DNA from: a virus
Lineage: Duplodnaviria; Heunggongvirae; Uroviricota; Caudoviricetes
IMG/VR virus record: IMGVR_UViG_3300028797_000103
Span: 23,685-87,684 of that record
DNA: 64,000 bases
Strand: one strand, 5' to 3'
Part shown: positions 2,078 to 56,712 of the stretch, piece after piece
Layout: each line of letters opens with the position of its first letter
Numbering within the stretch: the stretch's first letter is position 1
Translations under genes and position numbers: made by a program
Notes under the pieces: generated by a model
Database searches by the model: none
What the model was told of the DNA's origin: nothing
The model's input: the letters and a program-made list of their open reading frames with translations, nothing else

Positions 2078-2105
2078 ATTATATGCAAGTTTTCAAAAAA
2101 AGTTT
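2078..2105 (-). promoter_or_regulatory. class II (putative middle) promoter
   Basis: AAACTTTTTTTGAAAACTTGCATATAAT upstream of gp55. Confidence 0.65.
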
Positions 2106-2118
2106 TTTGAAGTTTTTT

Positions 2119-2126
2119 CATAAATA
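2119..2126 (+). promoter_or_regulatory. putative late promoter
   Basis: CATAAATA 22 nt before the GT2 gene. Confidence 0.55.
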
Positions 2127-2148
2127 ATTAAACGCAACAGGAAAAGCT

Positions 2149-2979
2149 ATGTCAAAGTCTTACAAATCTGGAATTTCTGTATGCATAACAGCATACCATT
2201 CTAAAAAATTTATAAAAGAAACTCTTGATAGCATTTCGAACCAGACTTGGTTTAAGACTCACGACAACTATGAAATCATAGTTGGAATAGACGGGGACAT
2301 CGAAGATGCTATGTACGTTCACAGTCTGATGGAAAAATATAAAAACATCAGAGTAATTGTTATGGAAAGCAACGAAGGCACTTATGTAACAACAAATACC
2401 GTAATGGACGCAGCAAGATATGAATGGTTGCTCAGGTTCGATTCCGACGATTTGATGAAAAGCTGTATGATAGAACGTTTAATGAATAACGCCGGACACG
2501 ACATAGTTAGATTTTATCATAACAGCCCAAATTCTTCGTCAAAAGAAATTGCACATGGTCAGATAATGATGAAACACGAAATCTTTGACAGGTTTGGTGG
2601 ATACAGACCATGGACTTGCGGCGCAGATACAGAATTTGAAAAAAGGGTATTCAATTTTGTTGACGTTTATACTATAAATGAATCGCTTTTCGTAAGAAGA
2701 CTGTTCGATAACAACTTGACTACATCTTTCACAACTGGAATGAACTCAAATCTCAGGAAGAAAAACCTGACATTCATATTGAACGAATCCTTCAAATCCG
2801 AACAAGAAGCAAAACTCAATCTTGTTAGAAATTCGTTCTATGAAATATTTCCAACAACGGACGTATCAATAATAAAAATAAAAGACGGTAAACAGTTAAG
2901 AAAAGATGCAGACGGCGCATCTATAACCCCTGCCGGAAATCACTTGACAAGACGAACGGCTGTTTACTTCAGACATTAA
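2149..2979 (+). CDS. glycosyltransferase family 2 (GT-A fold)
   Basis: ISVCITAY, YEIIVGIDG, NEGTYVTTNTVMDAARYEWLLRFDSDD (DxD), GGY....GADTEF. Confidence 0.85.
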   Translation: MSKSYKSGISVCITAYHSKKFIKETLDSISNQTWFKTHDNYEIIVGIDGDIEDAMYVHSLMEKYKNIRVIVMESNEGTYVTTNTVMDAARYEWLLRFDSDDLMKSCMIERLMNNAGHDIVRFYHNSPNSSSKEIAHGQIMMKHEIFDRFGGYRPWTCGADTEFEKRVFNFVDVYTINESLFVRRLFDNNLTTSFTTGMNSNLRKKNLTFILNESFKSEQEAKLNLVRNSFYEIFPTTDVSIIKIKDGKQLRKDADGASITPAGNHLTRRTAVYFRH

Positions 2980-3009
2980 AAAAGAGAGGGACTTAAATCC
3001 CTCTCTTTT
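2980..3009. terminator. bidirectional intrinsic terminator
   Basis: AAAAGAGAGGGA-cttaaa-TCCCTCTCTTTT between convergent genes. Confidence 0.85.
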
Positions 3010-3012
3010 ATT

Positions 3013-3321
3013 TTAGAAGAGTTCAGATGCGGTTTCATCATCATCTTCATGTTTCGGCATCCTCTTCATAACGTCTGCTAGTTGTGCGTTGAATTTTTGC
3101 GATTGCAAATCAAAAGCAACGTTTATTCCAGCTGCGGCGCCAGCCAAAACTAGGAACATTCCTACAGCCTGAAGAGCAGATGCTGTGACTTCACCCGGAG
3201 GTGGAACCCAGAACATACACAACAGACACATTACAGATCCAATAAGGAACGAAGCGACTGACAGTTTTGATTGCAATGATGAGAAAACAATCGCATCAAA
3301 ATATTTTTTGAACCCTTTCAT
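3013..3321 (-). CDS. two-TM membrane protein, putative holin
   Basis: Two hydrophobic helices around VPPPGEV and a charged C-tail; recalled resemblance to small Bacteroidales phage holin-like proteins (not searched). Confidence 0.5.
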   Translation of the reverse strand: MKGFKKYFDAIVFSSLQSKLSVASFLIGSVMCLLCMFWVPPPGEVTASALQAVGMFLVLAGAAAGINVAFDLQSQKFNAQLADVMKRMPKHEDDDETASELF

Positions 3322-3338
3322 TTTACGAGTAATATCTT

Positions 3339-6300
3339 TTATTTAGTTAATGCCATAGCATTCTTCAAATCGTTAACATATTCCGGAACATAATCGTCCG
3401 TCCCCTTTACGCTGATGCTTGAACCGTTCACATAAACGAGTTTCGCACTTTCATTCATCTTAACGATAGCCCTTACAGGATATGTGCTTTCATTTATGTT
3501 TCTGTAAGTATTGAAATCCTTTGCATTGATATAAGCTTCTGCATCTACCAAACCTTCATCGAGGTTAAGCTTTACGCTTCCTTCAAGATAGTTGTTTATG
3601 TCAAGAGCTTCGCAAAGATTTTCAGTTATCTTCACATACTTCTTAAGCATCTTTGTTGACTCGCCTTCAAGAATAACGTTTAATTCATCATCTTCTTTTG
3701 CATTGTTGTACTCCAAGAGAGAAACCTTACAGTCGTCTGATGTTATTCTTGCACCGTTGATGAACATTCCGCAGCTAACGTAACTTTCCATCAAAGCCTT
3801 CAGCGTGACTGGATCAAATTTCCAAGGGAAGTCAAGTGTGTCTGGACGCTCTCTCAGCATCTTAACATCGTTCTTTCCGTATTCGAGAGTGTGTCCGGAT
3901 ACATTTACGATATAATTTCCGGTTGACAGTTCAAAGATAATCTGACCGTTTCCAGCTGGAGTTGAAACGAAATCCAAAACTGTAGGTTTAGCTGATTCGT
4001 TTAAGGTATTATCTGCGGATTGCTCTAAAGATTCATTCTTTTTGGTTGCCTTAAATTTGAACTTTTTCTTTGGAGCATCTTTCTTTTCTTCTTTATCTTC
4101 CTCTTTTTCATCAGAAGATTCATCAGAAGATTCATCATCTGAACCAGTTTCAGTTTCTGTAGACTCTACAGACTCATCAGCCTTTTCTTCAGCCTTTTTT
4201 TCTTTATCCTCTTTCTCTTTTTCTTCGTCTTTCTCCTTATCCTTATCTTCGTCTGCTGATTCTTCGTCATCATTAAAAACTAGGCTATCCTTAACGTCGA
4301 AAGTTGTATCCTTGAAAGAACTATCATAGTCGGCACCCTCACCTTCCTTTGATTCAGAACTTTCGTTTCCATTCAAATCGTCAGTGTTGATTTCAACAGT
4401 CTTTCCTGTTGTATCATCCTTTATTGTAATATGAACGGCTTCATTAACGTGATTGTAAAAATCTATAGCCTGAGTTGGGGCATCATCATGATAGAACGAT
4501 TCAAGAACTTTCTTTGCCTTTCCGAATTCATCAGAAAGAATTTCAACGTTCATACCCTCGTCTATTCTCTTTACCTTAAATCCGTTTGCACCAAGCTTTG
4601 ATTCCAAGAATCCGTTGTATGGAACATTAAGACTATACTTTACAGATTTCTCTGCATTTTCCTTATATTCTGGAGCATAGTGTTCGAGAATATCAGTTAC
4701 GTCCTGTTCAACATCGTTGTTTCTTAGACTGTGAAGATAAAGTTTGTTGTAAATGTACTGTGCTTCTTCCTTGTTCTCTGCGATGACTCTCATCAAACCA
4801 CCTTTTTTTGAAAATCCATCGTCGTATTTTGCCTCAAGCAATGTGCAATATTCCTTTGTTGCTGGAATAAGGATGGAAAATACATCCTTCTTTCCCTCGT
4901 TGGTAGCAGACACGTTCTTTATCTGAACACTCTCGTTCGTTGGTCCTACTGGATATCCTTCCTGTGGTTTGTTATGAAAACATTTCACGAGTTCTGGACA
5001 GAAAGCATCGAACTCTTCGTCATTGTAATTCATCCAATCCTTGAAGTATTTCTTGAATGCGTGAGCCTGAGCTTTGTTTGATATCTTCAAACAAACTTCG
5101 TCACTCGCAGCTTCATGCTGCACACACTCAATCTTCAAGTCGTCCATATCCTTTTTGAATTCATCTACACCACGTGGTGCAAATTCATCAGGATAAAGAC
5201 CAACTGTTATTGGATATTGAGGAAGCTCGCTGTCAGCCTGCTGAATTTCAGCTGGAGTTTGCTGAACAGCTTCATCACCTTCCTTCGTATCAGATGATTC
5301 ATCACTAGGTTCTACAGAAGCATCAGCTGAATCAGACGGTGTCTGTTCTGACTGTGCTGGTTCTGTTGGAACATCTGGAACAGCTGGGGTTGTGTCAGGA
5401 ACACTTGGCTCAGCTGGAACTTCCGGCGTTGGGGTTACAGTTGGGGTTGACGGATTCTGATCACCATCTGGTTCATCCTTCTCAAATGTACCTGTTTTTG
5501 TTTCATCCGCATTGCTGATTGCATCGCAGATTGAATAGTACATATCCAAAGGCATATACTCATTGTTTATAACAGGCTTATTGTTGTCATCGAGATAGAA
5601 GGTAACCTTTCTCATATCATCGTGAACGTCACCATTGGCGTCGACAGAAGGTATAACAACTATAACCTCGCCCTTGTTTGTGAGTTTTCCGGTTTTAACA
5701 TTCTTGTTATATGAAACTCTAACAACCTCGTATGAATTTGCATTTGCTGGAGTTGCTGGAGCACCACCAGTCGTATCAGTTGTATCCGTTACAACGGGTG
5801 CTGGTGCATCGAAGTCTGGATCGAATGCAGGAACATCTGCATATTCATCTGGCTCTTCTGCGAAAGTTGTTAAATCTGTTTCACCTTCAGCCGGAACATC
5901 AGCTTCGCCGCCATCACCTAGAATTGGCTGTTCCATATCCTCCTCTGATTCTTTCTCCTTGTCTTCTGAGTCTTCACCAGACTTGTCGTCTGCATCATCA
6001 GTTGATTTGTCTGCTGTGTCGTCGTCTGATTTTTCGTCATCATCTGAATCTGGAACCTCATCCTTTAGGCTATCTTCACCTTCTTCACCATTAAGGAATT
6101 TATCAGCATCCTCCTGATACTTCTTATAATCAGCCTTCGTGTCCTCGATTTCCTTATCTATCATTGCGATAGCGTTATCGATATCCTCTATATCTGAAGA
6201 TTCTTCTTTCATCTTGGTTAGAGTTTCTTTCTTACTCTCCAATGATTCGAGATATCCTTCATACTCAGCCTTCTTAGCTTCGTATTCTTTCTTCGCGTTA

Positions 6301-8018
6301 TCCTGATCCGGAAGAACGTCTTCAAAGAGAGATGTGATGTTTATACCCATGTGCTCATTTATGTAATTCTTGCACTGGATAGGATTGACATTCTTATAAT
6401 ATACGGAACGACCGAGACTTTCGTCTATCGTATTCACGCATATATTGTTTCCAATCTTGAATACGTCAACAGATTTTCCACTTCTGTCGTTAGAAGCAAC
6501 TCTCTTAACAAAGTCTATTGATGCAATGTTATCAAAGTTTTCATTAAGAACCTTAACGGCTGAATAGAATGAAGCGCTTCCTTCGTTCATATAAGAAGCC
6601 TTGTTTATGAGAGAGTCAATTTCTCCCGGAACAACCTTCTTTCCGTTGATGCTGATTTCAGACTCACTGATAACAGCCTTATTGCTTCCTTCGTATATGG
6701 AAATTGTATTAAGAGCTTCAGAAATCTTAACGCTTCCTGAATTTACAAGAGCACAAAGATTCTTGAACGATTCGGAAAGGTTAGAAACTTCCTGACGAGA
6801 AAGCTTGCTGATTGCGTTTCCACTTCTCTTATAATACGTACCCTTAACGTTGAAGATGCTTTCATTCTCTTTGACATAAAGAACAGGTGAGAACACTTCC
6901 TCGGTGTGGACATACTTGTTTGCTGATTCAAGCGACTCACCAAGATATACACCAACGTTGAGAGACTGGTCTTTATTGACGATGTTTATGATATCTCTTA
7001 CGAAAGGATCATACTCAAATGATTCGAGTCTCTGTAAAAGAAGAACACGCTTAGCCATTGATTTATCATTAACATAATCAACAACAACTTCCTCGATGAG
7101 AGGAACGATGTAATATGAAGCGGTCTGCTCCATAATCTTTACGATCTTCTTGAGGTCAATATCTTGTTTGTACTTGCTGATTCTGTCATTCATTGCTGAA
7201 AGCTCAGTATCAACAGCGCTAAGATAATTCCAGTTGGAAATACCAGAAATGAATGACTCATATAGGGTTTCTTCTGATTTACCGGAATTAAGAGCAGCAA
7301 TATACTGTTCGCAGAAAGCACGAAGCTTCTCATTTTTCGAATTATCCTTAAGAATGTTTGCTATTGCACCGTTGAGACCGATGTGGCTCTCGATCATTGA
7401 AATGCTCTTCTTAGCTGCTGCTTTTTCAGCTTCCTTAGACTCGGCAACTCTGTCTGCTATTATAGCATCAACCTCGCTCTGTGTGTAGGTCTTTGGAGTT
7501 TTTTCACCTTCTGATTCAAGAAGCTCAGCATTGACAGCCTTAACACCAAGCTCTTCGTCGTGACCCTCGAATATAGCGATGTCTATAATGTTCTTTACGA
7601 TTGGCTCGTTTGAGAACAAAGATAGAGATTCGGCAAGGGCGTTTCTCGTCTCAGGAGTCTTGTTTACCATATAATCTACAGTATAAGACTCAAGCATTGG
7701 AGCAATGTACTTGCAGGAACTGTTGTATAAACTATAAATGTTGTTTGCGAGTTTGATGTTCTTTGCGTTTTTCTTTACTGATTCATTTAGAGAATTTAGG
7801 ATATCCTTCGCTGCTTCGCTCTCGGCTATCTTTGAAAGTTCAATCACAAATTTCTCGCAGAGTTGTTCGTCATGCTTTCCTGATGATAAAGCGGCATTGT
7901 ACTCTTTACAAAGAGCCATTATAGCAACTGAATTTGATTCTGAAAGCATAAGGCTGGCTATAGCAGATTTCAAATCAACAATCTTAACCATAGACAGTGT
8001 TCTGTTAGAGTTACTCAT
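3339..8018 (-). CDS. large acidic putative head-internal/scaffold-like protein with many x-x-E-S motifs
   Basis: 1559-aa ORF with a late motif 21 nt upstream; numerous LNES/INES/LLES-type motifs, an N-terminal duplicated domain and D/E- and P/T-rich linkers. The function is inferred. Confidence 0.6.
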   Translation of the reverse strand: MSNSNRTLSMVKIVDLKSAIASLMLSESNSVAIMALCKEYNAALSSGKHDEQLCEKFVIELSKIAESEAAKDILNSLNESVKKNAKNIKLANNIYSLYNSSCKYIAPMLESYTVDYMVNKTPETRNALAESLSLFSNEPIVKNIIDIAIFEGHDEELGVKAVNAELLESEGEKTPKTYTQSEVDAIIADRVAESKEAEKAAAKKSISMIESHIGLNGAIANILKDNSKNEKLRAFCEQYIAALNSGKSEETLYESFISGISNWNYLSAVDTELSAMNDRISKYKQDIDLKKIVKIMEQTASYYIVPLIEEVVVDYVNDKSMAKRVLLLQRLESFEYDPFVRDIINIVNKDQSLNVGVYLGESLESANKYVHTEEVFSPVLYVKENESIFNVKGTYYKRSGNAISKLSRQEVSNLSESFKNLCALVNSGSVKISEALNTISIYEGSNKAVISESEISINGKKVVPGEIDSLINKASYMNEGSASFYSAVKVLNENFDNIASIDFVKRVASNDRSGKSVDVFKIGNNICVNTIDESLGRSVYYKNVNPIQCKNYINEHMGINITSLFEDVLPDQDNAKKEYEAKKAEYEGYLESLESKKETLTKMKEESSDIEDIDNAIAMIDKEIEDTKADYKKYQEDADKFLNGEEGEDSLKDEVPDSDDDEKSDDDTADKSTDDADDKSGEDSEDKEKESEEDMEQPILGDGGEADVPAEGETDLTTFAEEPDEYADVPAFDPDFDAPAPVVTDTTDTTGGAPATPANANSYEVVRVSYNKNVKTGKLTNKGEVIVVIPSVDANGDVHDDMRKVTFYLDDNNKPVINNEYMPLDMYYSICDAISNADETKTGTFEKDEPDGDQNPSTPTVTPTPEVPAEPSVPDTTPAVPDVPTEPAQSEQTPSDSADASVEPSDESSDTKEGDEAVQQTPAEIQQADSELPQYPITVGLYPDEFAPRGVDEFKKDMDDLKIECVQHEAASDEVCLKISNKAQAHAFKKYFKDWMNYNDEEFDAFCPELVKCFHNKPQEGYPVGPTNESVQIKNVSATNEGKKDVFSILIPATKEYCTLLEAKYDDGFSKKGGLMRVIAENKEEAQYIYNKLYLHSLRNNDVEQDVTDILEHYAPEYKENAEKSVKYSLNVPYNGFLESKLGANGFKVKRIDEGMNVEILSDEFGKAKKVLESFYHDDAPTQAIDFYNHVNEAVHITIKDDTTGKTVEINTDDLNGNESSESKEGEGADYDSSFKDTTFDVKDSLVFNDDEESADEDKDKEKDEEKEKEDKEKKAEEKADESVESTETETGSDDESSDESSDEKEEDKEEKKDAPKKKFKFKATKKNESLEQSADNTLNESAKPTVLDFVSTPAGNGQIIFELSTGNYIVNVSGHTLEYGKNDVKMLRERPDTLDFPWKFDPVTLKALMESYVSCGMFINGARITSDDCKVSLLEYNNAKEDDELNVILEGESTKMLKKYVKITENLCEALDINNYLEGSVKLNLDEGLVDAEAYINAKDFNTYRNINESTYPVRAIVKMNESAKLVYVNGSSISVKGTDDYVPEYVNDLKNAMALTK

Positions 8019-8039
8019 TATTAAAATGTTTCGTTTTAT

Positions 8040-8047
8040 TATTTATT
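8040..8047 (-). promoter_or_regulatory. putative late promoter
   Basis: AATAAATA 21 nt before 8018. Confidence 0.6.
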
Positions 8048-8091
8048 ATCAATTCTTTAACAAAAAATGTAAAAATTTTTTTGCTTAACTA

Positions 8092-9465
8092 TCAGATAAT
8101 CAATATATTATCTATTTGATCCGATATTTTTTTGTCAGATGGATACAAAATTCCTACAGAAATTTTTCTAGAAATCGACTTCACGCTGTACTTCAACTTG
8201 GAATTATTTGTAGGTTCTATACCATATTTGTTCAAAGTAACGGAGTCTATATCTTTATAATAATCAATGCGTTCCAAGCATTTGTTTGTAATTTTTCCAA
8301 CATAACAGTCGTGAATCTTAACATTTCTCTTTCTATCGATATATTCTAAAGAAATTTGTATATAACCGTCGTTTGAAAACTCACCAGCATTAACTATTTG
8401 TATATTTTCTCCATTAACAGTTCCAGAATTATCAGTAGTTATTATCAACTTTGGTTCAGAAACAACAGAAACCAATTCATTGTTTATGAAGAAAACTTCA
8501 GGCTGTTTTATGTTAGATTCTATATTAGGTATAGTCCAATCAAATTCATTCGTCATCAATGCTATATCAGTAACGTGCTTTTTTCCTTCAGGGTCTATAT
8601 AATAAATTCCCATGCTATATCCCTGAGCGGTATTAGAATCAAATTTCCAAGAAAGATGAAGAACGTCACCAACTCTTTTTGGAGTGCTTATATCAATCGG
8701 GTCGAGCTTTACATTGATATATCTAGTGTCAGGTGCATTTTTTCCATTGTACGTATTAACGTCGAACGCCCAAGTTTCTACCTTATTATCTGCCTTTATT
8801 GCCATCGATTCATCAAAACAAGGTTGATAACACTCGACCGCAATACTAAAACTCATTTTAACTATATTTCCCTCCTGTTCAAATGAGTATGAAACAGTTT
8901 TATCACCTTCTGTTATACTTTCCGGGAATCCAGCACAACACCCAATCTTTATTCCTTTATATAAAACATTAAACGTTTGGTTTTTATAAAACTTGTTTCT
9001 CAACTCCTGTTCAATCTTGAACGCAGTCTCATAATTATCAATCCAGCCCTCAATATCAAATGTCATGGTTAGAGGAATTGAATATAAGTAAGCAACATAG
9101 GTTTCTACTTTTCCGTCTTCTTCTTTTTGATATTTTCCCTTAACGAATCGGTTTGTTATGTTTCCAGAATCTATACTTGAGCCAGAATAGGTAACAGCAA
9201 ATCGTGGAAGCATATCAAACTTTCCGTCGATTAACTTATCAGAAAAACACTCGCGACCAAAGAACGTATAGTTGTCCTGTGCAAATCTCTGGTCTTTTGC
9301 GTGTGCAAAATTATAAGCAAACGGTACTGTGACGCGCTCGACAACATTGTCATCCCAAACCTGCTCATATGTTATACTGTGGTTAAGGAGATATAGCAGA
9401 CCACCTATCACGGATCTGTTAAAAATGTTATCTACGTTATAGTGTTGATATAAAATGTCAGCCAT
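8092..9465 (-). CDS. T4 gp15-like tail sheath terminator with C-terminal extension
   Basis: RVTVPFAY...LPRFAVTYSGSSID...SIPLTMTFDI resembles gp15; about 200 extra C-terminal residues. Confidence 0.6.
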   Translation of the reverse strand: MADILYQHYNVDNIFNRSVIGGLLYLLNHSITYEQVWDDNVVERVTVPFAYNFAHAKDQRFAQDNYTFFGRECFSDKLIDGKFDMLPRFAVTYSGSSIDSGNITNRFVKGKYQKEEDGKVETYVAYLYSIPLTMTFDIEGWIDNYETAFKIEQELRNKFYKNQTFNVLYKGIKIGCCAGFPESITEGDKTVSYSFEQEGNIVKMSFSIAVECYQPCFDESMAIKADNKVETWAFDVNTYNGKNAPDTRYINVKLDPIDISTPKRVGDVLHLSWKFDSNTAQGYSMGIYYIDPEGKKHVTDIALMTNEFDWTIPNIESNIKQPEVFFINNELVSVVSEPKLIITTDNSGTVNGENIQIVNAGEFSNDGYIQISLEYIDRKRNVKIHDCYVGKITNKCLERIDYYKDIDSVTLNKYGIEPTNNSKLKYSVKSISRKISVGILYPSDKKISDQIDNILII

Positions 9466-9674
9466 TATTTTCTTCTCTTAACTTTGTATTTTCTTTTCTT
9501 TCTCTGGAACGATTTTGCACCTATAATTTCTCCGAATTTATCCGGACCGCCAATTGGGTTAACTTCACCCATTCCAAACCCAAGGTTTGCTGCATAGTCG
9601 TAGGATGCCCCTCCGCCGTCAACCGCATCACATTCATTTGTTTTCTTTTTGCGCTTAATTATAAATTTCTTCAT
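9465..9674 (-). CDS. small late protein, basic termini and Gly-rich core
   Basis: 69 aa; GATAAATA 22 nt upstream; TAATG coupling to the next gene. Confidence 0.6.
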   Translation of the reverse strand: MKKFIIKRKKKTNECDAVDGGGASYDYAANLGFGMGEVNPIGGPDKFGEIIGAKSFQRKKRKYKVKRRK

Positions 9675-9696
9675 ATAGATATGAAATGCGTTTGTT

Positions 9697-9704
9697 TATT
9701 TATC
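9697..9704 (-). promoter_or_regulatory. putative late promoter
   Basis: GATAAATA 22 nt before 9674. Confidence 0.6.
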
Positions 9705-9713
9705 TTAAAATGG

Positions 9714-9721
9714 GATAAATA
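9714..9721 (+). promoter_or_regulatory. putative late promoter
   Basis: GATAAATA 25 nt before 9747. Confidence 0.6.
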
Positions 9722-9746
9722 GATAAATGGATAAATTGTTAATTAT

Positions 9747-10295
9747 ATGGTTCTAAATAATAAACCTCAACTGTTTACATTCTTTTTTCCTAGCACTTTC
9801 TGGTATCCGGAAGTTGTCCAGAAATGGACACCGCTCATAGAGAGAATGAAACTTCCTTATATGGACCTTTCTGATTTTATGAACGCACAGGTTCAGCAGG
9901 TTCGTTTTCCCGGTGCAAACCTACAGATGTCTATGCAGGGAAGAGAGCAATATGAAATAATGTATCCAGCTGGAAAAGAGCTCGAAACTGAAGTTAACAA
10001 GACGTTGAGTATTACATTTAAGCTGACAGAAAGTTATCTTTCTTATTGGGTTTTGTGGGATCAGGTTGATTTGTATTTACACTATTCAAGTGAACATACG
10101 GAACACAAAGACTGTTGGTTTGAACCAGTAACACTTGGATTTTTAACGGACCAAGGCATACAGATGCTTGAGTTTACGTTCAACGAACTCACCCCAACAA
10201 ATCTTGGTGAGCTGAATCTAAGCTATGCGGCAACAGTTGCAACATATAACACATTTACATTTGATTTACATTACAATTGGTTCAGCGTTAAATAA
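9747..10295 (+). CDS. tail-tube-fold protein (gp19/gp3-like)
   Basis: QVRFPG...LSITFKLTESYLSYWVLWD...VTLGFLTDQG..MLEFTFNELTPTNLGELNLSY...FTFDLHY follows the tube-protein pattern; late motif upstream. Confidence 0.55.
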   Translation: MVLNNKPQLFTFFFPSTFWYPEVVQKWTPLIERMKLPYMDLSDFMNAQVQQVRFPGANLQMSMQGREQYEIMYPAGKELETEVNKTLSITFKLTESYLSYWVLWDQVDLYLHYSSEHTEHKDCWFEPVTLGFLTDQGIQMLEFTFNELTPTNLGELNLSYAATVATYNTFTFDLHYNWFSVK

Positions 10296-10303
10296 CCTAT
10301 AAA

Positions 10304-10311
10304 AATAAATA
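10304..10311 (+). promoter_or_regulatory. putative late promoter
   Basis: AATAAATA 20 nt before 10332. Confidence 0.55.
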
Positions 10312-10331
10312 AAGAAAAGAATAATCATATA

Positions 10332-11774
10332 ATGGCAACAGATCTTTTCGGGAAATATTTCAATAACCCAAAGAAGTCATACATATACACGAATCTAGTA
10401 TGTAACAGCCCATCGGCAGATGAACTGTCATTCGACATAATAGGTTCCGAGGGGCAAATAACGGACAACGGAAACAAACTCGCCGGAATAGACCTATCCG
10501 ATGTTCACGTTCCCCTAAGTCAATACTCAAGCGATATGAGAATTTTGGAACCATATAGCTATCTTTATATAAAAGGTATGGCATATGGCGACACATATGC
10601 TCAGAAAACATATGGAAGAATAGTTGGCGAAATAATAGACCACGATGAAAATTGGATGTACAATAGCATATTCTTCTTTGTTATAAAATACTTGGACACG
10701 ACAACTGGAAAACGAGTCGTAAAGTCTATCAAACTGAAGGGTGATTTGGAAAATGAAAAGACCTTCGTTGATGTTTGCACCGAATATTTTGAAGAAAATA
10801 AAATTCCAATCGGCGTAACATATGACGACGGTTATGTCACATTCACATCTCTTGAAATTGGTTATGATTTTTGGATTGACCATGTTTTACTATGGAAATC
10901 CGAAGATGATTATGACATAATGTCAGACATCAACAAATGGATAATCGACAACGGATATCAATATAAGGTTGGTTGGGATGATGATTATTTCGACAGCAAC
11001 AACATAACGAAAGACAACCCTTATCTTGAAAAGAACGTATATTCAAGCTTAATTACAAAATCAGACTACAGTAGACTTTATAATCTGATGAATCTTCTAG
11101 ACACCGATTTTCAGACAATGCTTGAAACCCATAACGTAAAAAGAGTTTTCCTTTTTGAAGATTTCTTAAAAAGAGTGTCCCCTAAGAAATACAGAAACGG
11201 CGCATTGAAAGGAATAGTCGTAAAAGCGACATATCCAAAATTCAATGCAGAAGACATATATGATTATCAGCGTTCTCTGAAAATTGCACACGTTCAGGAT
11301 AGCATTGAAGAATACCACATGATTCCTGAAAGTGTTGTTGATGGAACATATCTGGCAACAAGGAAGATTCTTGATGTTGTAGATTCGTATCATTGTGAAT
11401 ATGACAGCGAAGCTTATGATATGTGGCTTGGAAAATATTCAAGCAAAAACACAAGAGACGAGTGGATAAGACACGATGAGCTACCACAGATTGTTCCAGA
11501 AATGTTCTATAAATGGAAACATTCACACGTTCCATTCAACGTTCAGGCACTTTCAATATATAAAGACATCGAATCCAGAGATGCAATTGGTCTTGCAGGA
11601 TATTGTGTATATCTAACAAAACACAACCTCTGGACAAATTTCGGGCAATTCTATTGCATAACAAGCATATCTGATGATGAATCAGATCCATATTGCAAAA
11701 ACCTTATACCGGGAATTGTTATATACAACCCTAACGAATTCCCAGTTACCGTAAACTACGCTACGTTTGTATAA
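10332..11774 (+). CDS. hypothetical (probable virion) protein
   Basis: 480-aa ORF; AATAAATA 20 nt upstream. Confidence 0.65.
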   Translation: MATDLFGKYFNNPKKSYIYTNLVCNSPSADELSFDIIGSEGQITDNGNKLAGIDLSDVHVPLSQYSSDMRILEPYSYLYIKGMAYGDTYAQKTYGRIVGEIIDHDENWMYNSIFFFVIKYLDTTTGKRVVKSIKLKGDLENEKTFVDVCTEYFEENKIPIGVTYDDGYVTFTSLEIGYDFWIDHVLLWKSEDDYDIMSDINKWIIDNGYQYKVGWDDDYFDSNNITKDNPYLEKNVYSSLITKSDYSRLYNLMNLLDTDFQTMLETHNVKRVFLFEDFLKRVSPKKYRNGALKGIVVKATYPKFNAEDIYDYQRSLKIAHVQDSIEEYHMIPESVVDGTYLATRKILDVVDSYHCEYDSEAYDMWLGKYSSKNTRDEWIRHDELPQIVPEMFYKWKHSHVPFNVQALSIYKDIESRDAIGLAGYCVYLTKHNLWTNFGQFYCITSISDDESDPYCKNLIPGIVIYNPNEFPVTVNYATFV

Positions 11775-12217
11775 TGAGCAAAAGAAGAAAACTTAATGAA
11801 AACTGGTTTGCCGGTGGAAACATGTCTAGTCCCGGAATGGACTGGGGGATGTCTCCTGCAACATATATGGTACAAGGTGGGCAAACTGGATATACCTACG
11901 CAATAAGAGGTCTCGATGACACATTACAGCAGAAACCAAACACACCACCGAGAGAATATTACATTTATCCGGGGTGTTCAGTAAGCGGAGTTGGTATAAA
12001 CAATCCAGATAAAAAATATTCTGGAAAGGTTTATAGAATATTGAGAGACGTTGATGGTTCTATAATAGGATTGTACATTTTGACATTTAAGACATCAAAG
12101 TTTGTATCAATAAGAGCTGATGAAAATCTTACGCTTCTTATAGCGAAGTCTCCTGATGAAGTTGACAGATTCAGTCCAATCGCTTCGCATAACGTCGATA
12201 CTCTACCAACAAGATAA
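11774..12217 (+). CDS. hypothetical late protein (starts MSKRRKLNE)
   Basis: 147 aa; TAATG coupled to the previous gene; followed by a terminator. Confidence 0.65.
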   Translation: MSKRRKLNENWFAGGNMSSPGMDWGMSPATYMVQGGQTGYTYAIRGLDDTLQQKPNTPPREYYIYPGCSVSGVGINNPDKKYSGKVYRILRDVDGSIIGLYILTFKTSKFVSIRADENLTLLIAKSPDEVDRFSPIASHNVDTLPTR

Positions 12218-12218
12218 C

Positions 12219-12246
12219 AAAAGAGCAGTCACTTGACTGCTCTTTT
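12219..12246. terminator. bidirectional intrinsic terminator
   Basis: AAAAGAGCAGTCA-ct-TGACTGCTCTTTT between convergent genes. Confidence 0.85.
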
Positions 12247-12567
12247 TTAAACTCCGAAATTACTAAGATTTCCCATATTTCCGAAATTCATTCCGCCATA
12301 ATTCGGCATACTGAATCCACGTGTTATCGAATCCATATTTGGTGTATTCGAATTCGCCTGCTTCATCATAGCATCCAAATCTGGCTGCTTATACTTGTCG
12401 TTGTATTCTTCCTCATATCTTTCCTGCTCTTCTTTCTGTTGTTTGTTCTCTTCATCGAGATATTCAACATATTTCTTATAGAGCATTGAAATGTCATAGA
12501 AAAACATTCTACCCATTTCTTCTGGTCCGATATGAAGTTTAAGAGCGAATATCAACTCAAGCTCCAC
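12247..12567 (-). CDS. gp51-like / tail-assembly-chaperone C-terminal ORF (possibly read as a frameshift extension)
   Basis: HIGPEEMGRMFFYDISMLYKKYVEYLDEENKQQ resembles the small ORF that follows gp26 in T4-like phages; only a GTG start, and the frame is open back to 12624. Confidence 0.55.
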   Translation of the reverse strand: MELELIFALKLHIGPEEMGRMFFYDISMLYKKYVEYLDEENKQQKEEQERYEEEYNDKYKQPDLDAMMKQANSNTPNMDSITRGFSMPNYGGMNFGNMGNLSNFGV

Positions 12568-17258: not shown

Positions 17259-17259
17259 A

Positions 17260-45382: not shown

Positions 45383-45395
45383 CCGTATATTTGCA
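45383..45395 (+). promoter_or_regulatory. Bacteroidetes-type promoter -7 element
   Basis: CCGTATATTTGCA before the SH3-uvsX-uvsY run. Confidence 0.75.
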
Positions 45396-45404: not shown

Positions 45405-45689
45405 ATGGAACATCTTGATGAAAAACAATCTGCTATAAAGAAAAAAATAGAATTGAGACGCTTGAAGCGTTTGTTGAAAAAAGGAGAAGTGTCGTTTTCT
45501 TATAAGAAAAAGGATGGTTCAACAAGGCACGCAGTCGGAACACTTAAGATTTCTTTGATACCAAAGGAAGACAGAGCTGACGACAGACTTACAAAACAAA
45601 ACAAAGACGTTTTCAATTATTACGATTTGAAAAAAGAAGATTGGCGTTGTTTTTTGAAAGACAATTTCAGGAAGATAGAAGAAAAATAA
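45405..45689 (+). CDS. SH3/Sm-like beta-barrel protein (T4 gp61.1/WYL_2-like)
   Basis: GEVSFSYKKKDGSTRHAVGTL...YYDLKKEDWRCF. Confidence 0.7.
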   Translation: MEHLDEKQSAIKKKIELRRLKRLLKKGEVSFSYKKKDGSTRHAVGTLKISLIPKEDRADDRLTKQNKDVFNYYDLKKEDWRCFLKDNFRKIEEK

Positions 45690-45700
45690 AAGGAAATAAA

Positions 45701-47973: not shown

Positions 47974-48651
47974 ATGAGACAAAAAAACTATTACAGCGAA
48001 TTATATAGACTTCACAAAAAAGATTATGAGAAGATGTCAGAAGACTTTCTCGTAAAGGACACGTTGACCTCACCAAAATACGGCAAGGAAAAACTTCGTG
48101 AGGTTTCTGGTATGGATATGGAGGATGCTTCTCAGACAGATTTCGTACCTGCTATGTTTTATACATTCCTATATAAGTCTCCAACGATGTTCACTAACAA
48201 GAACGCTCCATTTTTAGATGTAGCCCCTTTAATATTGTGCACAAACATATCTGAGACTCGTGTTCAGGGATTTAATATGAATTTCTTGCCGAATGATGTC
48301 AGGGCTAGGCTTTTAGATGTGATAGTAGAAAGTAATCCTGAATTTTACGAAGATGAAACGTCTGATGATTTCAGGACAAACGAAAAACTTGCTATGACGT
48401 TTATGGATCAGAACGGGATGCAGGGTTTTTTGGATATGATGAAAAGAACATCTGTTAAGTTTGACCTTGGGCACGCACTTAGGACATATAGAAGAGATTT
48501 CATTTCAAATGTTAGACTTATAGAAATGGATATGTGGAAATATATACCGTTTTTAAATTTTAAAGACTCTGTAAGAGGTCTTAATCTGGCGAAACTTCAG
48601 GTTGAAGGAACTTTGAAATCGAACGAAGAAGGTAACTCGTTTTCAAAATAA
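47974..48651 (+). CDS. DNA end protector gp2-like
   Basis: MFYTFLY...DVAPLIL...GFNMNFLP..R..LLD; located between gp4 and portal. Confidence 0.65.
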   Translation: MRQKNYYSELYRLHKKDYEKMSEDFLVKDTLTSPKYGKEKLREVSGMDMEDASQTDFVPAMFYTFLYKSPTMFTNKNAPFLDVAPLILCTNISETRVQGFNMNFLPNDVRARLLDVIVESNPEFYEDETSDDFRTNEKLAMTFMDQNGMQGFLDMMKRTSVKFDLGHALRTYRRDFISNVRLIEMDMWKYIPFLNFKDSVRGLNLAKLQVEGTLKSNEEGNSFSK

Positions 48652-48654
48652 ATA
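48647..48654 (+). promoter_or_regulatory. putative late promoter
   Basis: AATAAATA 21 nt before the portal gene. Confidence 0.6.
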
Positions 48655-48675: not shown

Positions 48676-50484
48676 ATGGCTAAAAAATATATACTTAAAA
48701 CAGTAAGCACAGGACCAGACGGAGGCGTAGGGAGAAGCAACAGAAGCTTGGAACGAAACCTTATAAATCTGAGTGCGCTTGGAATAAAATGGAACAGTAA
48801 CCTCATAAAGAACATCAGGACAGATGTTGATATGGGGTATGACGACCAGATACGTGCCGGTGGAATAAACATGTCTATGATGATGGGCGACGATTTCTAC
48901 ACAAGAGCCCACCAGACAATAGCCGGTAACAATCAGTTTATTGCATATTATGACCAGACATATAGGATGAGAAGGGACTTCCTTCGTAAGTTTGCCCTTC
49001 AGTCTGAAATAGATTATGTGTTGGAAACCGTCGCTGATTCTGTCATAGTAAATGACGATATGCATTATTTTGCGTATCCTAATACAAAGAACCTTAAAAG
49101 CATTCTTACGCCGGAGCACGGAAAAGAAATTGTAGACGATCTTAATGGGGCATATAGAAGAATATATCACTTGTTCCATTTCAATGAGTCAAACGACGCT
49201 TGGCACTATGTGAAAAAACTCTTGATTGACGGTTTCTTGGCGTTTGAAATCATTTACAGTGACACAGATAACGGAAGAAAGGCTAAGGATATTATAGGAT
49301 TCAAGGAACTGGATCCGATAACCCTTGCACCAGAAATAAAGATCGGTCCAGATGGAAGCGAATATAAAGTTTGGATTGTAAACAAAGGAAGCAAAGAAAA
49401 CGAACGTGAACTTCTTGATACAAACGTCATCTATATTTCTTGGGCTAAGAATAATTTTGTTTCTCACTTCTCATATTGCGAAAGGCTTATAAGGGCTTTT
49501 AATATGTTGAGAACGTTGGAAAATTCAAGAATTATATGGAACGTTCAGAATGCACAGAAGAGAGTCAAGATTGTTGTTCCGATAGGTTCTACTTCAGAAC
49601 AGATTGCAAAGACAAGACTTCGTGAGCTTGAAGCCTATTATAAGGAAGACATAAACATAGACAATATGTCCGGTGAAATAACCGTTAACGGTCAACCGAA
49701 GTTTTCTTTTGCAAAAACGATGGTGTTCCCATCTAAGGACGGAACAACAACAGAAATCGGAGAAATCGGTATAGAAGGGCACGACATGAATTCAACCGAA
49801 CCTTTGAAATGGTTCTGGCAGAGATTCATCATCGAGACTAGACTTCCGAAGGATAGATTCAATATGATATTTGATGGTTCCGAAACATCAATCGTTCCGG
49901 ATAACAGCACGATGACAAAAGAAGAGTATAGATTCTCGTTGTTCATTGACAGAATTCGTGGAATATTTAAAGAGATATTGATAAAGCCAACTTGGTTACA
50001 GTTCTGTTTGCATCATCCTGAGTTTGCATCGAACAATGTTTTGAAGAACGCGTTTGGTCTGACCTTTACGGAAGAAAATGTATTTAGACTAGCAAAGGAA
50101 GCAGCAAACCTATCAGCCGGTGCAAACATAATTCAGACACTTGCTGGCATTCAGGATAAAAACGGTGTTAATGTTTTCAGCACAAGATTTCTTGTTCAGA
50201 GGTACCTTAACTTTACAGATGACGATTGGAAGCTTAACGAGAAGCTCAAAGCAGATGAGGAAAAAGAAGCACTCGAAAAGCAGAGAGAGCAACAGAATGC
50301 AACACCGCCAGCTGGCGCCGGTGGAGGAGGTGATCTTGGAGGAGGTCTCGGAGGTGGCGACCTTGGTGGAGGTCTCGGCGGCGGTGATCTCGGCGGCGGA
50401 GAGTTAGGAGGAGGCGATCTCGGTGGCGGAGAAGCCCCAGTAGAAACTCCAGCGGAAGCCCCAGTAGAAACTCCAGAAGTTTAA
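48676..50484 (+). CDS. gp20: portal protein gp20-like
   Basis: EIDYVLETVAD, LIDGFLAFEI, LIRAFNMLRTLENSRIIW, LKWF...TRLPKDRF, EEYRFSLFIDRIR; late motif 21 nt upstream. Confidence 0.9.
   Translation: MAKKYILKTVSTGPDGGVGRSNRSLERNLINLSALGIKWNSNLIKNIRTDVDMGYDDQIRAGGINMSMMMGDDFYTRAHQTIAGNNQFIAYYDQTYRMRRDFLRKFALQSEIDYVLETVADSVIVNDDMHYFAYPNTKNLKSILTPEHGKEIVDDLNGAYRRIYHLFHFNESNDAWHYVKKLLIDGFLAFEIIYSDTDNGRKAKDIIGFKELDPITLAPEIKIGPDGSEYKVWIVNKGSKENERELLDTNVIYISWAKNNFVSHFSYCERLIRAFNMLRTLENSRIIWNVQNAQKRVKIVVPIGSTSEQIAKTRLRELEAYYKEDINIDNMSGEITVNGQPKFSFAKTMVFPSKDGTTTEIGEIGIEGHDMNSTEPLKWFWQRFIIETRLPKDRFNMIFDGSETSIVPDNSTMTKEEYRFSLFIDRIRGIFKEILIKPTWLQFCLHHPEFASNNVLKNAFGLTFTEENVFRLAKEAANLSAGANIIQTLAGIQDKNGVNVFSTRFLVQRYLNFTDDDWKLNEKLKADEEKEALEKQREQQNATPPAGAGGGGDLGGGLGGGDLGGGLGGGDLGGGELGGGDLGGGEAPVETPAEAPVETPEV
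50321..50476 (+). repeat. low-complexity C-terminal repeats of the portal gene
   Basis: GGG(D/E)L/GGGL repeats with synonymous variation; two exact 22-nt copies of GAAGCCCCAGTAGAAACTCCAG at 50431 and 50455. Confidence 0.9.
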
Positions 50485-51541: not shown

Positions 51542-51554
51542 CCGTATATTTGCA
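51542..51554 (+). promoter_or_regulatory. Bacteroidetes-type promoter -7 element
   Basis: CCGTATATTTGCA before ligA. Confidence 0.75.
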
Positions 51555-53661: not shown

Positions 53662-53674
53662 CAGTATATTTGCA
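53662..53674 (+). promoter_or_regulatory. Bacteroidetes-type promoter -7 element
   Basis: CAGTATATTTGCA before the DinG...ECF sigma run. Confidence 0.75.
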
Positions 53675-53677
53675 AAA

Positions 53678-55438
53678 GTGGAAGTTACTATTCAAAAAAT
53701 AGAAAAAGAGGTTGAGGATTGCGCACTTCGTCACTACGGCTCTACTTTTAGGTTTAGACCAAACCAGAAGGAAGCTGTTGTGAATACTGTGTATTCTTGG
53801 CTATCTGGAAGCTGCACAGATATAATATTGCAGGGACCAACCGGATCCGGAAAATCTGCAATAGGTTTACTTGCGGCCGCAGTTATGTCAGAATTTTACG
53901 GAAAGAAAGGATACATTGTTATAAGTGATTTGTCATTGATAAAGCAATATGAAAAAGATGTTGAAAGATTCTTTCCGAAATGGAGCGTAATAAAAGGACA
54001 AGATAATTACATTTGTCATAAAAACGGACTGCCGTTTACTGCTGGTGAGTGTAAATTGAAAGGCTGTAAAAGCTATAAAGACATATTTATGAAGTTTCCA
54101 GATTGTTCATCCAGTTGCCAATATATTCAGGAGAGACTTCGCGCAATGAATTCCGACGTTGTTATATGTACATACGCGTTCTGGCTCATTCAACAGAATC
54201 TCGTGAAGCCGATGGTTGACAACCCGCCGTTTACAACAAGAGACTTCACAATACTCGATGAAGCGCATAAGCTTGTCGGGATTGTTCAAAGTTATTTTTC
54301 TCCAAAATTATCTGAATCAGATGAGGGAAAATTCATAAACATAATGAACAGTGTCGGTGAGGTTGATTCTGAAGTAATAACTGACATTAAACGGATAAGA
54401 GAAAATATATTTTATTCAGAGGACAATCAGGTTATATTCGACAACTTAAAGGAATATGTCGAAAAGGTTGTTATCGTCGCTGATAACGTTGATGCTATAA
54501 TGCGAGAGCTGAGAGAAAAACTTGAACGTGGAGAAGAGATGTCAAAAGAAGACAAGAACCTTGTTCATAACTGCAACTTTGTTGAGGAGCATCTTCGTAC
54601 GTTTGGTTCGTATGTTGGGATAATAGAATCGACGGGCATAGATAATATGGTTAAGAACCCACAGAGCGAATCGGTCATAGCGTTTAACTGTATCGAAGAA
54701 TCTTATCTTATGGGCAGGTATTTTCACAGAAACGCAAAAAACAAATTGTATATGTCGGCGACTATTGGTGAAGCGTCCGCATATGCAAAAGAGGTTGCTA
54801 CAGAAAAATATCTGAGCATAGATATACCGTCGACGTTTGATTTCACAAATTCTCCGATATTCTACATAGACACATATAAGTTGTCATATAAAGAAAAAGA
54901 AACGTCGTTGCCGAGAATAATAGAACTTATCATCGCAACAATAAATATGTATCAAGGGAAACGTGGTATAATTCAAACCGGAAGTTATGATTTCGCAAAG
55001 AAATTATATTTCGGTGTTCCTGACGACATACAACGAAGGCTCATCTTATATGATGATTCAAAAGGAAAGGACGAAGCGATATTTGCGTTCAAGGCATCGT
55101 CTGATAAAATTTTGGTCGGACCAAGTCTAATAGAGGGTCTTTCGTTTGACGACGATTTGTGCAGATTCCAGATCATAATGAAAATACCATATCCAAGTTT
55201 GGCTGATAAGTTTGTTTCGGCGAAACAAAAAATAAGACCGGAGTGGTATTCAAACACAACTGCTATATCAATATTGCAGGGAGTCGGAAGAGGAATAAGA
55301 AGTGAACATGACTGGTGTGTTACTTTCATATTTGACGGGTGCTTTACCAATCTTGCAAGACAGTCATATAAAATGTTTCCGGATGAATTTAAGAGAAGGA
55401 TTAAAATAATACAGCCTAAAGATATATTGGGAGGTTAA
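53678..55438 (+). CDS. DinG/XPD-family SF2 helicase
   Basis: GPTGSGKS, ILDEAHKL, MSATI, LQGVGRGIRSEHD; Cys cluster (ICH...ECK..GC...DCSSSC). Confidence 0.85.
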   Translation: MEVTIQKIEKEVEDCALRHYGSTFRFRPNQKEAVVNTVYSWLSGSCTDIILQGPTGSGKSAIGLLAAAVMSEFYGKKGYIVISDLSLIKQYEKDVERFFPKWSVIKGQDNYICHKNGLPFTAGECKLKGCKSYKDIFMKFPDCSSSCQYIQERLRAMNSDVVICTYAFWLIQQNLVKPMVDNPPFTTRDFTILDEAHKLVGIVQSYFSPKLSESDEGKFINIMNSVGEVDSEVITDIKRIRENIFYSEDNQVIFDNLKEYVEKVVIVADNVDAIMRELREKLERGEEMSKEDKNLVHNCNFVEEHLRTFGSYVGIIESTGIDNMVKNPQSESVIAFNCIEESYLMGRYFHRNAKNKLYMSATIGEASAYAKEVATEKYLSIDIPSTFDFTNSPIFYIDTYKLSYKEKETSLPRIIELIIATINMYQGKRGIIQTGSYDFAKKLYFGVPDDIQRRLILYDDSKGKDEAIFAFKASSDKILVGPSLIEGLSFDDDLCRFQIIMKIPYPSLADKFVSAKQKIRPEWYSNTTAISILQGVGRGIRSEHDWCVTFIFDGCFTNLARQSYKMFPDEFKRRIKIIQPKDILGG

Positions 55439-55439
55439 T

Positions 55440-55634
55440 ATGGAAATAATAAAAAAAGGAAACGAAAACAAGAAAGAATATATGTTCACTTGCCGGGTGT
55501 GTGGATGTGAGGCAAAATTTGACGAATCAGATATTAAAGGAGATCGCGATGGACAGTATATTGTGTGTCCTCAATGTGGACGGTTTGTGTCAATAATGTC
55601 AGATTTTATTAGAGAATTAAACGATAAAAATTAA
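55440..55634 (+). CDS. small zinc-ribbon protein
   Basis: CRVCGC...CPQCG. Confidence 0.6.
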   Translation: MEIIKKGNENKKEYMFTCRVCGCEAKFDESDIKGDRDGQYIVCPQCGRFVSIMSDFIRELNDKN

Positions 55635-55644
55635 GTATAGAAAA

Positions 55645-55962
55645 ATGGCTAAATCAACAGATATGCCGGAACCAAAGGTTCTTAATTATGATTTAAAATA
55701 TCGCGTGACGCAGCTTTTTATCAATGATTTAAAGAAGGTGTTGGCGAATGTTGCTTATGCAGACGCAATAAGATTGTTTGATAAAATAGAAAGTTGTGAA
55801 AGGGTTTTCACTCTGGCTCAGCTCAATGAGTTTATTTCAGAACTTTCAGAATTCCCATATAAGCATGTTGTTGCTATAATGGCAGTTTTGAATCAAAAAG
55901 ATAATTTCTTCAAATACTTTGAAGAACTTGTTCCTGTCCCTGAGAATAAGGATGAAAAATAA
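55645..55962 (+). CDS. hypothetical protein
   Basis: 105-aa ORF in the plus-strand run. Confidence 0.6.
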   Translation: MAKSTDMPEPKVLNYDLKYRVTQLFINDLKKVLANVAYADAIRLFDKIESCERVFTLAQLNEFISELSEFPYKHVVAIMAVLNQKDNFFKYFEELVPVPENKDEK

Positions 55963-55977
55963 GTGTGTTGATGCCAG

Positions 55978-56712
55978 ATGACGAGGAGGGTAGACATATT
56001 CAATTTAGAGAACTCTACAGACAAATTCGCCCCAAAAGAGAGGGATATTGAAATCCTTGGGCGGAGGTTTGTGAATTGTCCGAGCGACAAGAATTTTAGA
56101 GAACTCTATAATAGGATACAATGGGGGTTAAAAAAATACATATTGACTATTGTAAAATCAAATGAATATGTAGACGATGTTTTCTCAAAAACAATTGAGA
56201 TGATTTATTTCAAGAGGAAATCGTATGTGCAATCAAAGGGAAAGTTTTCCACTTGGATATATAAGATAGCGTTGAACAACAGCCTTATGCTTTTGAGAGA
56301 TGGTTATGATAAATTTTTATCAACAGCGATAGACGCAGACATCTCAGAAGTCTATGATAACGAGCTTTTTAAGAATTGTAGAAACGAAATCGATTCTTTT
56401 AATGAAGATGATGATTTTGATCTTGTTATGAAGAACGGGCGCTGGGATAGATATGACAAAAGAAGTGTAACATTTGAAACGTTTGATGCGTCTGTTCGAT
56501 GCATGGACTATCTTCCTGACACATATAAAACGGTTTTAGTGGATAGGTTCATAAATAATAAGAAACTTGAAGATATTGCATCGGATAACAAAATAAACCT
56601 CTCGTCTGTAAAGACTTGGCTGAGAAAGGGGTTAACTGCTCTTGAGAGCGAAATGAATTATAGGGAAAGGGATTTAGTAACCGAATATAAACTGTTCAGT
56701 GAGGCAGTGTAA
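55978..56712 (+). CDS. ECF-type sigma-70 family RNA polymerase sigma factor
   Basis: Region 2 (FRELY...VDDVFSKT...KGKFSTWIYKIALN) and region 4 (LPDTYKTVL...LEDIA...LSSVKTWLRKG). Confidence 0.85.
   Translation: MTRRVDIFNLENSTDKFAPKERDIEILGRRFVNCPSDKNFRELYNRIQWGLKKYILTIVKSNEYVDDVFSKTIEMIYFKRKSYVQSKGKFSTWIYKIALNNSLMLLRDGYDKFLSTAIDADISEVYDNELFKNCRNEIDSFNEDDDFDLVMKNGRWDRYDKRSVTFETFDASVRCMDYLPDTYKTVLVDRFINNKKLEDIASDNKINLSSVKTWLRKGLTALESEMNYRERDLVTEYKLFSEAV

Follow-up and report, generated by a model that had tools for sequence, protein, structure and literature searches.

We analysed a 64,000-nt stretch of phage DNA (G000:C1:23685-87684; below, the window), which is part of the 151,684-bp virus record G000 (38% G+C). 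The window encodes two phage sigma factors, one related to the late sigma factor gp55 of phage T4 and the other resembling the extracytoplasmic function (ECF) sigma factors of bacteria. Reading all gene fronts in the record yielded three recurring promoter motifs, which we term class I, class II and class III. The present account centres on class II, a two-part element found in front of the gp55-like gene, and on the protein that may read it. Proteins identical to both sigma factors are present on a 328,867-bp contig, and the record-wide counts given for this phage cover 151,684 bp of a genome of about 329 kb, of which about 54% lies outside the record. Genes were called in our scripts as plain longest open reading frames (ORFs) with ATG starts only, functional labels were taken from PHROG, Pfam and Atlas matches, and intergenic sequence makes up 10.3% of the record.

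The class II element, AAACTTTTTT-N9-GCATATAAT, occurs in exactly three copies in the full record. These copies and the genes around them, together with the operon that carries the ECF-like sigma gene, are as follows.

1594-2040, minus strand: gp55-like late sigma gene, 148 aa (phrog_234 'late sigma transcription factor', 2.4e-18)
2078-2105, minus strand: class II promoter 1, an exact copy in a 108-nt divergent gap, 37 nt before the ATG of the gp55-like gene
2119-2126, plus strand: late-type box CATAAATA in the upstream sequence of the divergent gene 2149-2979, 22 nt from it
2149-2979, plus strand: family-2 glycosyltransferase gene (Glycos_transf_2, 7.5e-18)
15511-16308, minus strand: first gene behind promoter 2, 265 aa, DUF6549/DUF6808-like (Atlas features score 0.96 to DUF6549/DUF6808 clusters)
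16411-16438, minus strand: class II promoter 2 (GAAACTTTTTT...GCATATAAT), an exact copy, intergenic and co-oriented with gene 15511-16308, 102 nt before it
29108-29130, plus strand: terminator-like hairpin GCCCGATTGATTCGGGC and T-run just 5' of promoter 3, read from the sequence
29138-29165, plus strand: class II promoter 3, an exact copy, 26 nt before gene 29192-30031
29192-30972, plus strand: two-gene unit behind promoter 3, encoding a GT-A-like glycosyltransferase (279 aa) and then a 314-aa protein without assigned function
53665-53672, plus strand: class I box TATATTTG (context AATCAGTATATTTGCAAAA), with 5 nt between it and the GTG that opens the helicase-to-sigma run
53678-55438, plus strand: DNA helicase gene (phrog_2488, 7.3e-112), the first of the early run that contains the sigma gene
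55978-56712, plus strand: ECF-like sigma gene, 244 aa (Pfam Sigma70_r2 5.9e-7, residues 44-108; r4_2 9.5e-6, residues 174-222)

When up to three mismatches were allowed, four class II matches were found in the record against 0.14 expected, and none of 100 shuffled sequences reached four. The looser pattern AAACTT-N16-TATAAT was observed three times against 0.07 in Markov simulations, none of 60 of which reached three. Each of the three exact copies lies between genes and faces the next one, with 37, 102 and 26 nt between the end of the -10 element and the ATG at sites 1, 2 and 3, respectively. The likeness among them reaches slightly past the motif itself, to (A)AAAC T6 .. GCATATAAT N4 (T/G)AG, and gives the consensus aaAAACTTTTTT...GCATATAAT for this phage. 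In its geometry the element consists of an AAAC (-35) box followed by a T-tract, with 18 nt from the C to TATAAT. An initial annotation made from the sequence had reported three identically spaced bipartite copies at these positions, one of them directly upstream of a gp55-like gene, and both observations hold. The fourth match (8073-8100, plus strand; three mismatches) faces no gene and probably arose by chance.

Judged by the layout of the gap, site 1 is the sole promoter candidate for the gp55-like gene, because the late-type box in the same gap sits on the opposite strand and would serve the glycosyltransferase gene. Behind gene 15511-16308 at site 2 follow genes of 631 aa and then 343 aa (phrog_36717; 12557-13588). 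The GT-A-like glycosyltransferase behind site 3 (29192-30031) has Atlas structural matches with TM scores of 0.73-0.78 to GT2/GT17 clusters, and its unit has 397 homologues with E<1e-20. Class II in this phage is a minor class of three sites, which stand before gp55, the GT-A-like unit and one operon without assigned function.

Several further features lie near these sites. The 102-nt leader between site 2 and its gene (16309-16410) contains an AT-repeat stretch and a GGAAG-N9-CTTCC hairpin. A Dps-like/DUF5856 gene (phrog_858; 28560-29102) terminates at the hairpin that precedes site 3, and the helicase gene at 26908-28536 has a 33-nt upstream gap without a recognisable box of any of the three classes. 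Outside the window, 504-531 nt before its start, a degenerate look-alike (TAACTTTTTT-N9-GCATTTAGT; G000 23153-23180, minus strand) retains the correct spacing and is followed by a late box, GGATAAATA, before a 205-aa gene; by its form this may be a decayed class II site. For the genes immediately 3' of gp55 and several large ORFs, PHROG and Pfam searches returned no function.

In relatives, gp55 orthologues 66-91% identical to the one described here have this two-part element, identically spaced, in front of them (L001/G001, L013, L014/L015 and G003). Counting this phage and a relative in which the site is split by an insertion sequence (IS; L011/L012), class II stands before gp55 in six phages. 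Its usual form in the relatives is TAATC(G)TTTT, again with 18 nt from the C to TATAAT. G001 (95.6 kb) has eight matches to the pattern against none in a backwards control; all eight are intergenic and on the coding strand, and six are clean intergenic AATC sites with the consensus TTTTAATCGTTTT...ATATAATTT(A/T)TAGAA. G002 has 10 matches against two in the control and six clean intergenic AATC sites (consensus AAAAATCGTTTT...TATAATTTATAGA), and G003 (consensus TTTAATCGTTTT...c(a/c)GTATAATAATGTAAAG) has 15 against four, with nine clean intergenic sites, eight of the AATC type and one off-consensus site of the AAAC type. The genes behind class II sites in G001 and G003 encode gp55, NrdG, thioredoxin, NrdD, a DnaB-like helicase, the single-stranded DNA-binding protein SSB, parts of DNA polymerase, a UvsX-like recombinase, an Mre11-like exonuclease and the phrog_36717 protein, whose gene has a class II site directly in front of it in both phages. 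In G002 and G003 a class II site also stands before the orthologue of the site-3 unit, that of the GT-A-like glycosyltransferase. These sites make class II a conserved class of promoters that serves gp55 and pre-late genes of the replication type.

The repeats could instead be binding sites for a regulator or remnants of recombination: there are only three copies in this phage, site 3 lies directly behind a terminator and site 2 is 102 nt from its gene. However, their strict gene-ward orientation, the fixed two-part spacing around a variable spacer and the -10 hexamer all point to promoters, and the element is conserved at orthologous gene fronts across phages in which the surrounding DNA has diverged. 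We therefore consider a non-promoter origin very improbable and are highly confident that class II is a genuine promoter class.

In more distant records the picture is less clear. From the sigma-bearing fragments G006 and G008 a class II consensus did not emerge clearly. For G004 and G005, which are AT-rich and Lak-like, the pattern is at only about twice the control level, and class II is not established there. An AAAC-N18-TAAAAT sequence before gp55 of G004 and G005 was considered as a class II site and rejected, as it overlaps a terminator hairpin. The gp55 genes of these two records (L039, G004:C1:177587-177940; L040, G005:C1:303688-304041) contain three in-frame TAG codons, and production of the late sigma factor in them would depend on amber suppression, which would tie a genetic-code switch to the late switch.

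The two sigma factors differ in kind. The gp55-like protein matches T4 gp55 in the PDB (7d7c_F, E 5.6e-4, residues 34-123) and has more than 50 homologue clusters. The AlphaFold2 model of the second protein (23 homologues; pLDDT 82.9) comprises a helical sigma-2 domain (24-115) and a sigma-4 domain (161-243), joined by a long linker made up of a disordered stretch and a beta-hairpin. It has no sigma-3 domain, and the combination of sigma-2 and sigma-4 only, with neither region 1.1 nor sigma-3, is the architecture of ECF factors. The top Foldseek matches of the model are nearly all ECF proteins (SigK, sigma-E, AlgU, SigW, SigL, SigH and CnrH), with two non-ECF chains in the first 20, and region 4 is nearest to SigW and SigV. 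The protein scores 48 bits against TIGR02985, a model of a Bacteroidota ECF subfamily, and many ECF equivalog models match it far under their own cut-offs. A profile search for its family returned 30 clusters below 1e-30 and 232 below 1e-10. A single-protein pattern search of IMG/VR found no sigma homologues; as a query, an alignment of 23 sequences proved too diverse and one of five sequences was effective. No anti-sigma gene was recognised beside the sigma gene, although no search aimed at anti-sigmas was made, and the small neighbouring genes (55440-55962 and 56731-58095) have no family match where tested.

Among deposited phages, a homologue of the ECF-like sigma was found in the 15 Prevotella phage Lak records only, and no deposited phage with near-identical DNA was found. 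Because sigma homologues are confined to Lak records and the early promoters are of Bacteroidota type, the phage is a smaller relative of the Lak megaphages, with Prevotella as its probable host.

The class I and class III motifs provide the context in which class II has to be read. The primary sigma factor of Bacteroidota recognises a -7 box, TAnnTTTG. Class I, (C/A)GTA(T/C)ATTTGCA, fits this box, and 24 of its 31 copies are intergenic. In the window it heads the ligase gene, the helicase-to-sigma run and the unit of the UvsX-like recombinase; a DNA polymerase part and many tRNA-island genes lie behind it elsewhere in the record. A class I box lies just upstream of the helicase-to-sigma run in all five phages examined (this phage, L006, L009, L021 and L022), and the gene order ligase-helicase-small gene-sigma is kept in the relatives. 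The proposal of the initial annotation that an ECF-like sigma lies in a run behind a host-type promoter is borne out by the box TATATTTG and by the Sigma70_r2 and r4_2 domains of the protein. Class III, (A/G)ATAAATA, has 43 copies. Intergenic DNA holds 27 of them, 22 are found no more than 120 nt from a start on the same strand, and the usual distance from box to ATG is 19-30 nt. Behind it stand genes for the tail tube, head closure, portal and baseplate region as well as large structural genes, in keeping with the earlier reading of RATAAATA as a box before late genes. The boxes in the window include the following.

8040-8047, minus strand: class III box AATAAATA, 21 nt before a 1559-aa gene
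9714-9721, plus strand: class III box GATAAATA, 25 nt before the tail-tube-like gene 9747-10295
26895-26902, minus strand: class III box, 20 nt before the head-closure-like gene 25339-26874
45385-45393, plus strand: class I box GTATATTTG, before a 94-aa gene and the UvsX-like recombinase gene (45701-46927)
48647-48654, plus strand: class III box, 21 nt before the portal gene 48676-50484
51544-51552, plus strand: class I box, before the NAD-dependent DNA ligase gene

In T4, the late promoter is TATAAATA and is read by gp55, which acts together with the co-activator gp33 and the sliding clamp gp45. The phage described here likewise has a single TATAAATA-like -10 box before its virion genes, and by analogy class III would be read by the gp55-like protein, as in T4. 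In the 72-nt divergent gap between a 69-aa gene and the tail-tube-like gene (9675-9746), each strand has late boxes, and several of those on the plus strand are in tandem (GGGATAAATAGATAAATGGATAAATTG). At the other end of the presumed programme, the host-type -7 box lies 5-6 nt before the helicase start codon in the window (53665-53680, GTG), in L006 (~7859-7875) and in L009 (~7889-7904), and another gene front reads TATATTTGCAAAATG; such spacing suggests that these early messages are probably leaderless or nearly so.

These elements suggest a three-step relay. The host primary sigma would read class I and thereby express the early genes, including the helicase-to-sigma operon. The ECF-like sigma, together with host core RNA polymerase, would then read class II ([A/T]AA[A/T]C, a T-tract and 18 nt from the C to TATAAT) to express gp55 and, in the relatives, also replication, recombination and nucleotide genes. 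Finally, gp55 would read class III, about 20 nt before the start codon, and turn on the virion genes. At the level of motifs, each sigma gene sits behind the preceding promoter class: the sigma operon behind class I in five phages and gp55 behind class II in six. We infer the readers of class II and class III and the timing of the steps, and for class II the case is built on exclusion and resemblance.

The exclusion argument is as follows. A reader with both sigma-2 and sigma-4 is needed because the promoter is two-part, with a fixed spacing and a variable spacer. The host primary sigma is unfit for this role because the class II -10 does not match the TAnnTTTG box of class I, and gp55 is unfit because it cannot start its own first expression. 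The host primary sigma might nevertheless act if it were remodelled by a phage activator bound at the AA(A/T)C/T-tract box, a form of appropriation like that of T4 MotA/AsiA. In T4, too, middle promoters have two parts, and a box specific to the phage stands upstream in place of the -35; several small conserved genes without assigned function flank the ECF-like sigma gene; and the AATC box of the relatives is not ECF-like. However, T4 middle promoters retain a host-type -10, whereas TATAAT of class II does not fit the host TAnnTTTG, and appropriation would leave a conserved ECF-like sigma without a target. We regard such remodelling as unlikely. AsiA and MotA searches of the partial record G000 gave no match, but the controls were equally silent, so that this result says nothing either way.

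The resemblance argument concerns the -35 region. The AAAC and T-tract found here, (G/A)AAAC, resemble the promoters of SigW- and SigV-type ECF factors (tGAAACnTTTt), and AAC followed by a T-tract, which the initial annotation had put forward as typical of an ECF -35 element, is documented as such (PMC5758882). In a HMMER alignment to SigW, K212 and T213 of the phage sigma occupy the places that R171 and S172 hold in sigma-E. There, R or K is associated with C-31 and T, as opposed to S, with A at -34 (PMC1540707). K212 and T213 agree with (G/A)AAAC. In five phages the recognition helix reads SVKTW with AAAC as against VKNW with AATC.

An ECF sigma of the host, rather than of the phage, might also be the reader, since the layout of AAC and a T-tract is generic to several ECF groups and the phage protein is itself related to the Bacteroidota subfamily model TIGR02985. 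However, the motif differs between close phages that probably share similar hosts, both in AAAC versus AATC and in the -10 flanks, which fits a phage-borne reader better, and it seems a fragile arrangement for replication genes and gp55 to depend on a stress-induced host factor. A host alternative sigma thus appears improbable to us. We give the same low weight to another phage factor, perhaps a further sigma or an RNA polymerase of the phage, encoded in the rest of the genome, with the ECF-like sigma serving other targets. Only 151.7 kb of the roughly 329 kb were examined, which leaves room for such a factor. Yet the ECF-like sigma is the only Sigma70_r2 gene found in G000, each of four relative records (G002, G003, G004 and G005, the last a complete 553-kb genome) has one member only of its family, and no RNA polymerase-like protein was found among the large ORFs tested.

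Several observations weigh against the ECF-like sigma as the reader of class II, or against the relay as a whole. In the promoters of ECF sigmas, an AAC -35 and a short, group-specific -10 are 14-17 bp apart. Characterised ECF sigmas have a CGT-type -10 (PMC5758882), whereas the conserved -10 of class II is a full TATAAT; the sites can also be read as AAC-N16-CATA, and we infer their link to the ECF-like sigma itself. The protein falls just short of the ECF superfamily model TIGR02937 (42.8 bits; cut-off 42.9). In the relatives the -35 reads AATC and lacks the AAC that marks ECF promoters. As for the recognition helix, its T-to-N change amounts to a single evolutionary event, and we set aside the co-variation of helix and -35 as strong support: the Lak-like records combine N with AAAC-like candidate sites, which leaves the correlation weak. 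In this phage class II is confined to three sites within 151.7 kb. The initial annotation had proposed to look for co-conservation of the motif with the ECF sigma, and class II sites are indeed present in every relative record that covers the sigma locus (G002, G003, L009 and the k141 contig); as sigma and motif are both clade-wide, their co-occurrence discriminates little. Bovine metatranscriptome libraries contain short contigs 90-100% identical to the phage, but in the three runs searched (5-10% of sampled words) positions 1-20000 of the window matched scattered contigs of 150-375 nt, which are uninformative on transcript starts and class II sites.

A further point of this kind comes from the closest relative (k141_717600), in which gp55 is 91% and the sigma 52% identical to those described here. 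An IS605-type element (L011:8633-9974, ENA k141_717600; TnpB/OrfB 8707-9864) is inserted in its gp55 promoter and separates the -35, AAAAAACTTTTT, from the -10, TTTTGCATATAAT. The same right junction is present in a second assembly (L012:1-85), and since the split site is found in two assemblies, expression of gp55 is apparently possible without an intact class II promoter. The element starts with its own Bacteroidota-type promoter, CAGTATATTTGCAAAA, which reads toward gp55, and transcription from this IS promoter probably reads through into gp55 of the closest relative. In that case the relay can be bypassed.

Taking these points together, we hold with moderate confidence that the whole relay operates as proposed, from host sigma to ECF-like sigma to gp55, with the ECF-like sigma as the reader of class II.

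The suggestion of the initial annotation that class II replaces the middle mode of T4 stands in part. The element does front gp55 here and replication genes in the relatives; however, with three sites, unusually few next to the relatives, it is not general in this phage, where the ligase gene, the helicase-sigma operon, the UvsX-like recombinase gene and the DNA polymerase part lie behind host-type promoters rather than class II. The unit of the UvsX-like recombinase has class I and class III here (45405-46927), as against class II in L009:208-1498 and G003:89135-90691, and the DNA polymerase part has class I here as against class II in relatives. By comparison of these gene fronts, promoter classes have evidently been swapped at orthologous genes. 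A possible history, which we put forward tentatively and rate below the relay itself, is that the ECF-like sigma is the middle-gene sigma and gp55 switch of the Lak lineage, that its specificity has drifted (AAAC/AATC, SVKTW/VKNW) while genes moved between controls, and that in this phage most replication genes have returned to host-type promoters, leaving gp55 as the main target. The turnover of promoter classes at orthologous genes seen in this comparison is a case of regulatory rewiring in phages.

Lak-type Prevotella megaphages are abundant in animal and human guts and are uncultivated, and to our knowledge nothing is known of the timing of gene expression in them. In the searchable literature we found no description of a cascade of an ECF-like middle sigma and gp55, in a Bacteroidota phage or in the Lak lineage, or of Lak promoters. 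With three readable promoter classes, the sequence by itself is enough to assign genes to early, middle and late groups, and the proposed relay suggests how the middle phase may be run in T4-like phages that lack MotA/AsiA. As a candidate pair, the small sigma and its presumed 28-bp promoter could in time be developed into an orthogonal switch for gene expression in Bacteroidota.

The relay strategy is in itself known, combining the logic of SPO1 with a T4-like late step; it is the combination with an ECF-like middle sigma that we did not find in the searchable literature. With T4, the phage shares a gp55 homologue, a late box, (A/G)ATAAATA, near the starts of virion genes, and a pre-late class that includes the gp55 gene and, in relatives, replication genes. 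The MotA/AsiA system appropriates the host sigma; here, by contrast, the middle class combines a -35 of its own with a non-host -10, and a phage sigma-2/sigma-4 protein is at hand. With bacterial ECF factors (SigW/SigV and sigma-E), the phage sigma shares the two-domain architecture and K/T at the base-contacting positions, and its candidate promoters the AAAC and T-tract -35; it departs from them in its long linker with a beta-hairpin, the TATAAT -10 of these candidate promoters, AATC in relatives and the phage location of the gene.

Phage-borne sigma factors of distant descent are known from phiEco32, whose gp36 serves middle and late promoters through a single AATGTA element centred at -11.5, with help from gp79 (PMC12276001). 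In both cases a distant sigma carried by the phage takes over host core for post-early genes, as we propose here, but the element described here is two-part and the late genes are left to a separate gp55. The closest parallel in logic is SPO1. Its cascade runs from host sigma-A to gp28 to gp33/gp34, so that an early phage sigma redirects core to the middle genes, including the late sigma gene or genes, and the relay proposed here has the same stepwise logic. One account states that SPO1 depends on phage sigmas for its middle and late transcription (PMC13401047). In contrast to SPO1, the late factor here is of the T4 gp55 type and would read a single -10-like box rather than being a gp33/gp34 pair, the middle sigma is ECF-like, and the system, known here from sequence alone, belongs to a Bacteroidota host with unusual primary-sigma promoters.

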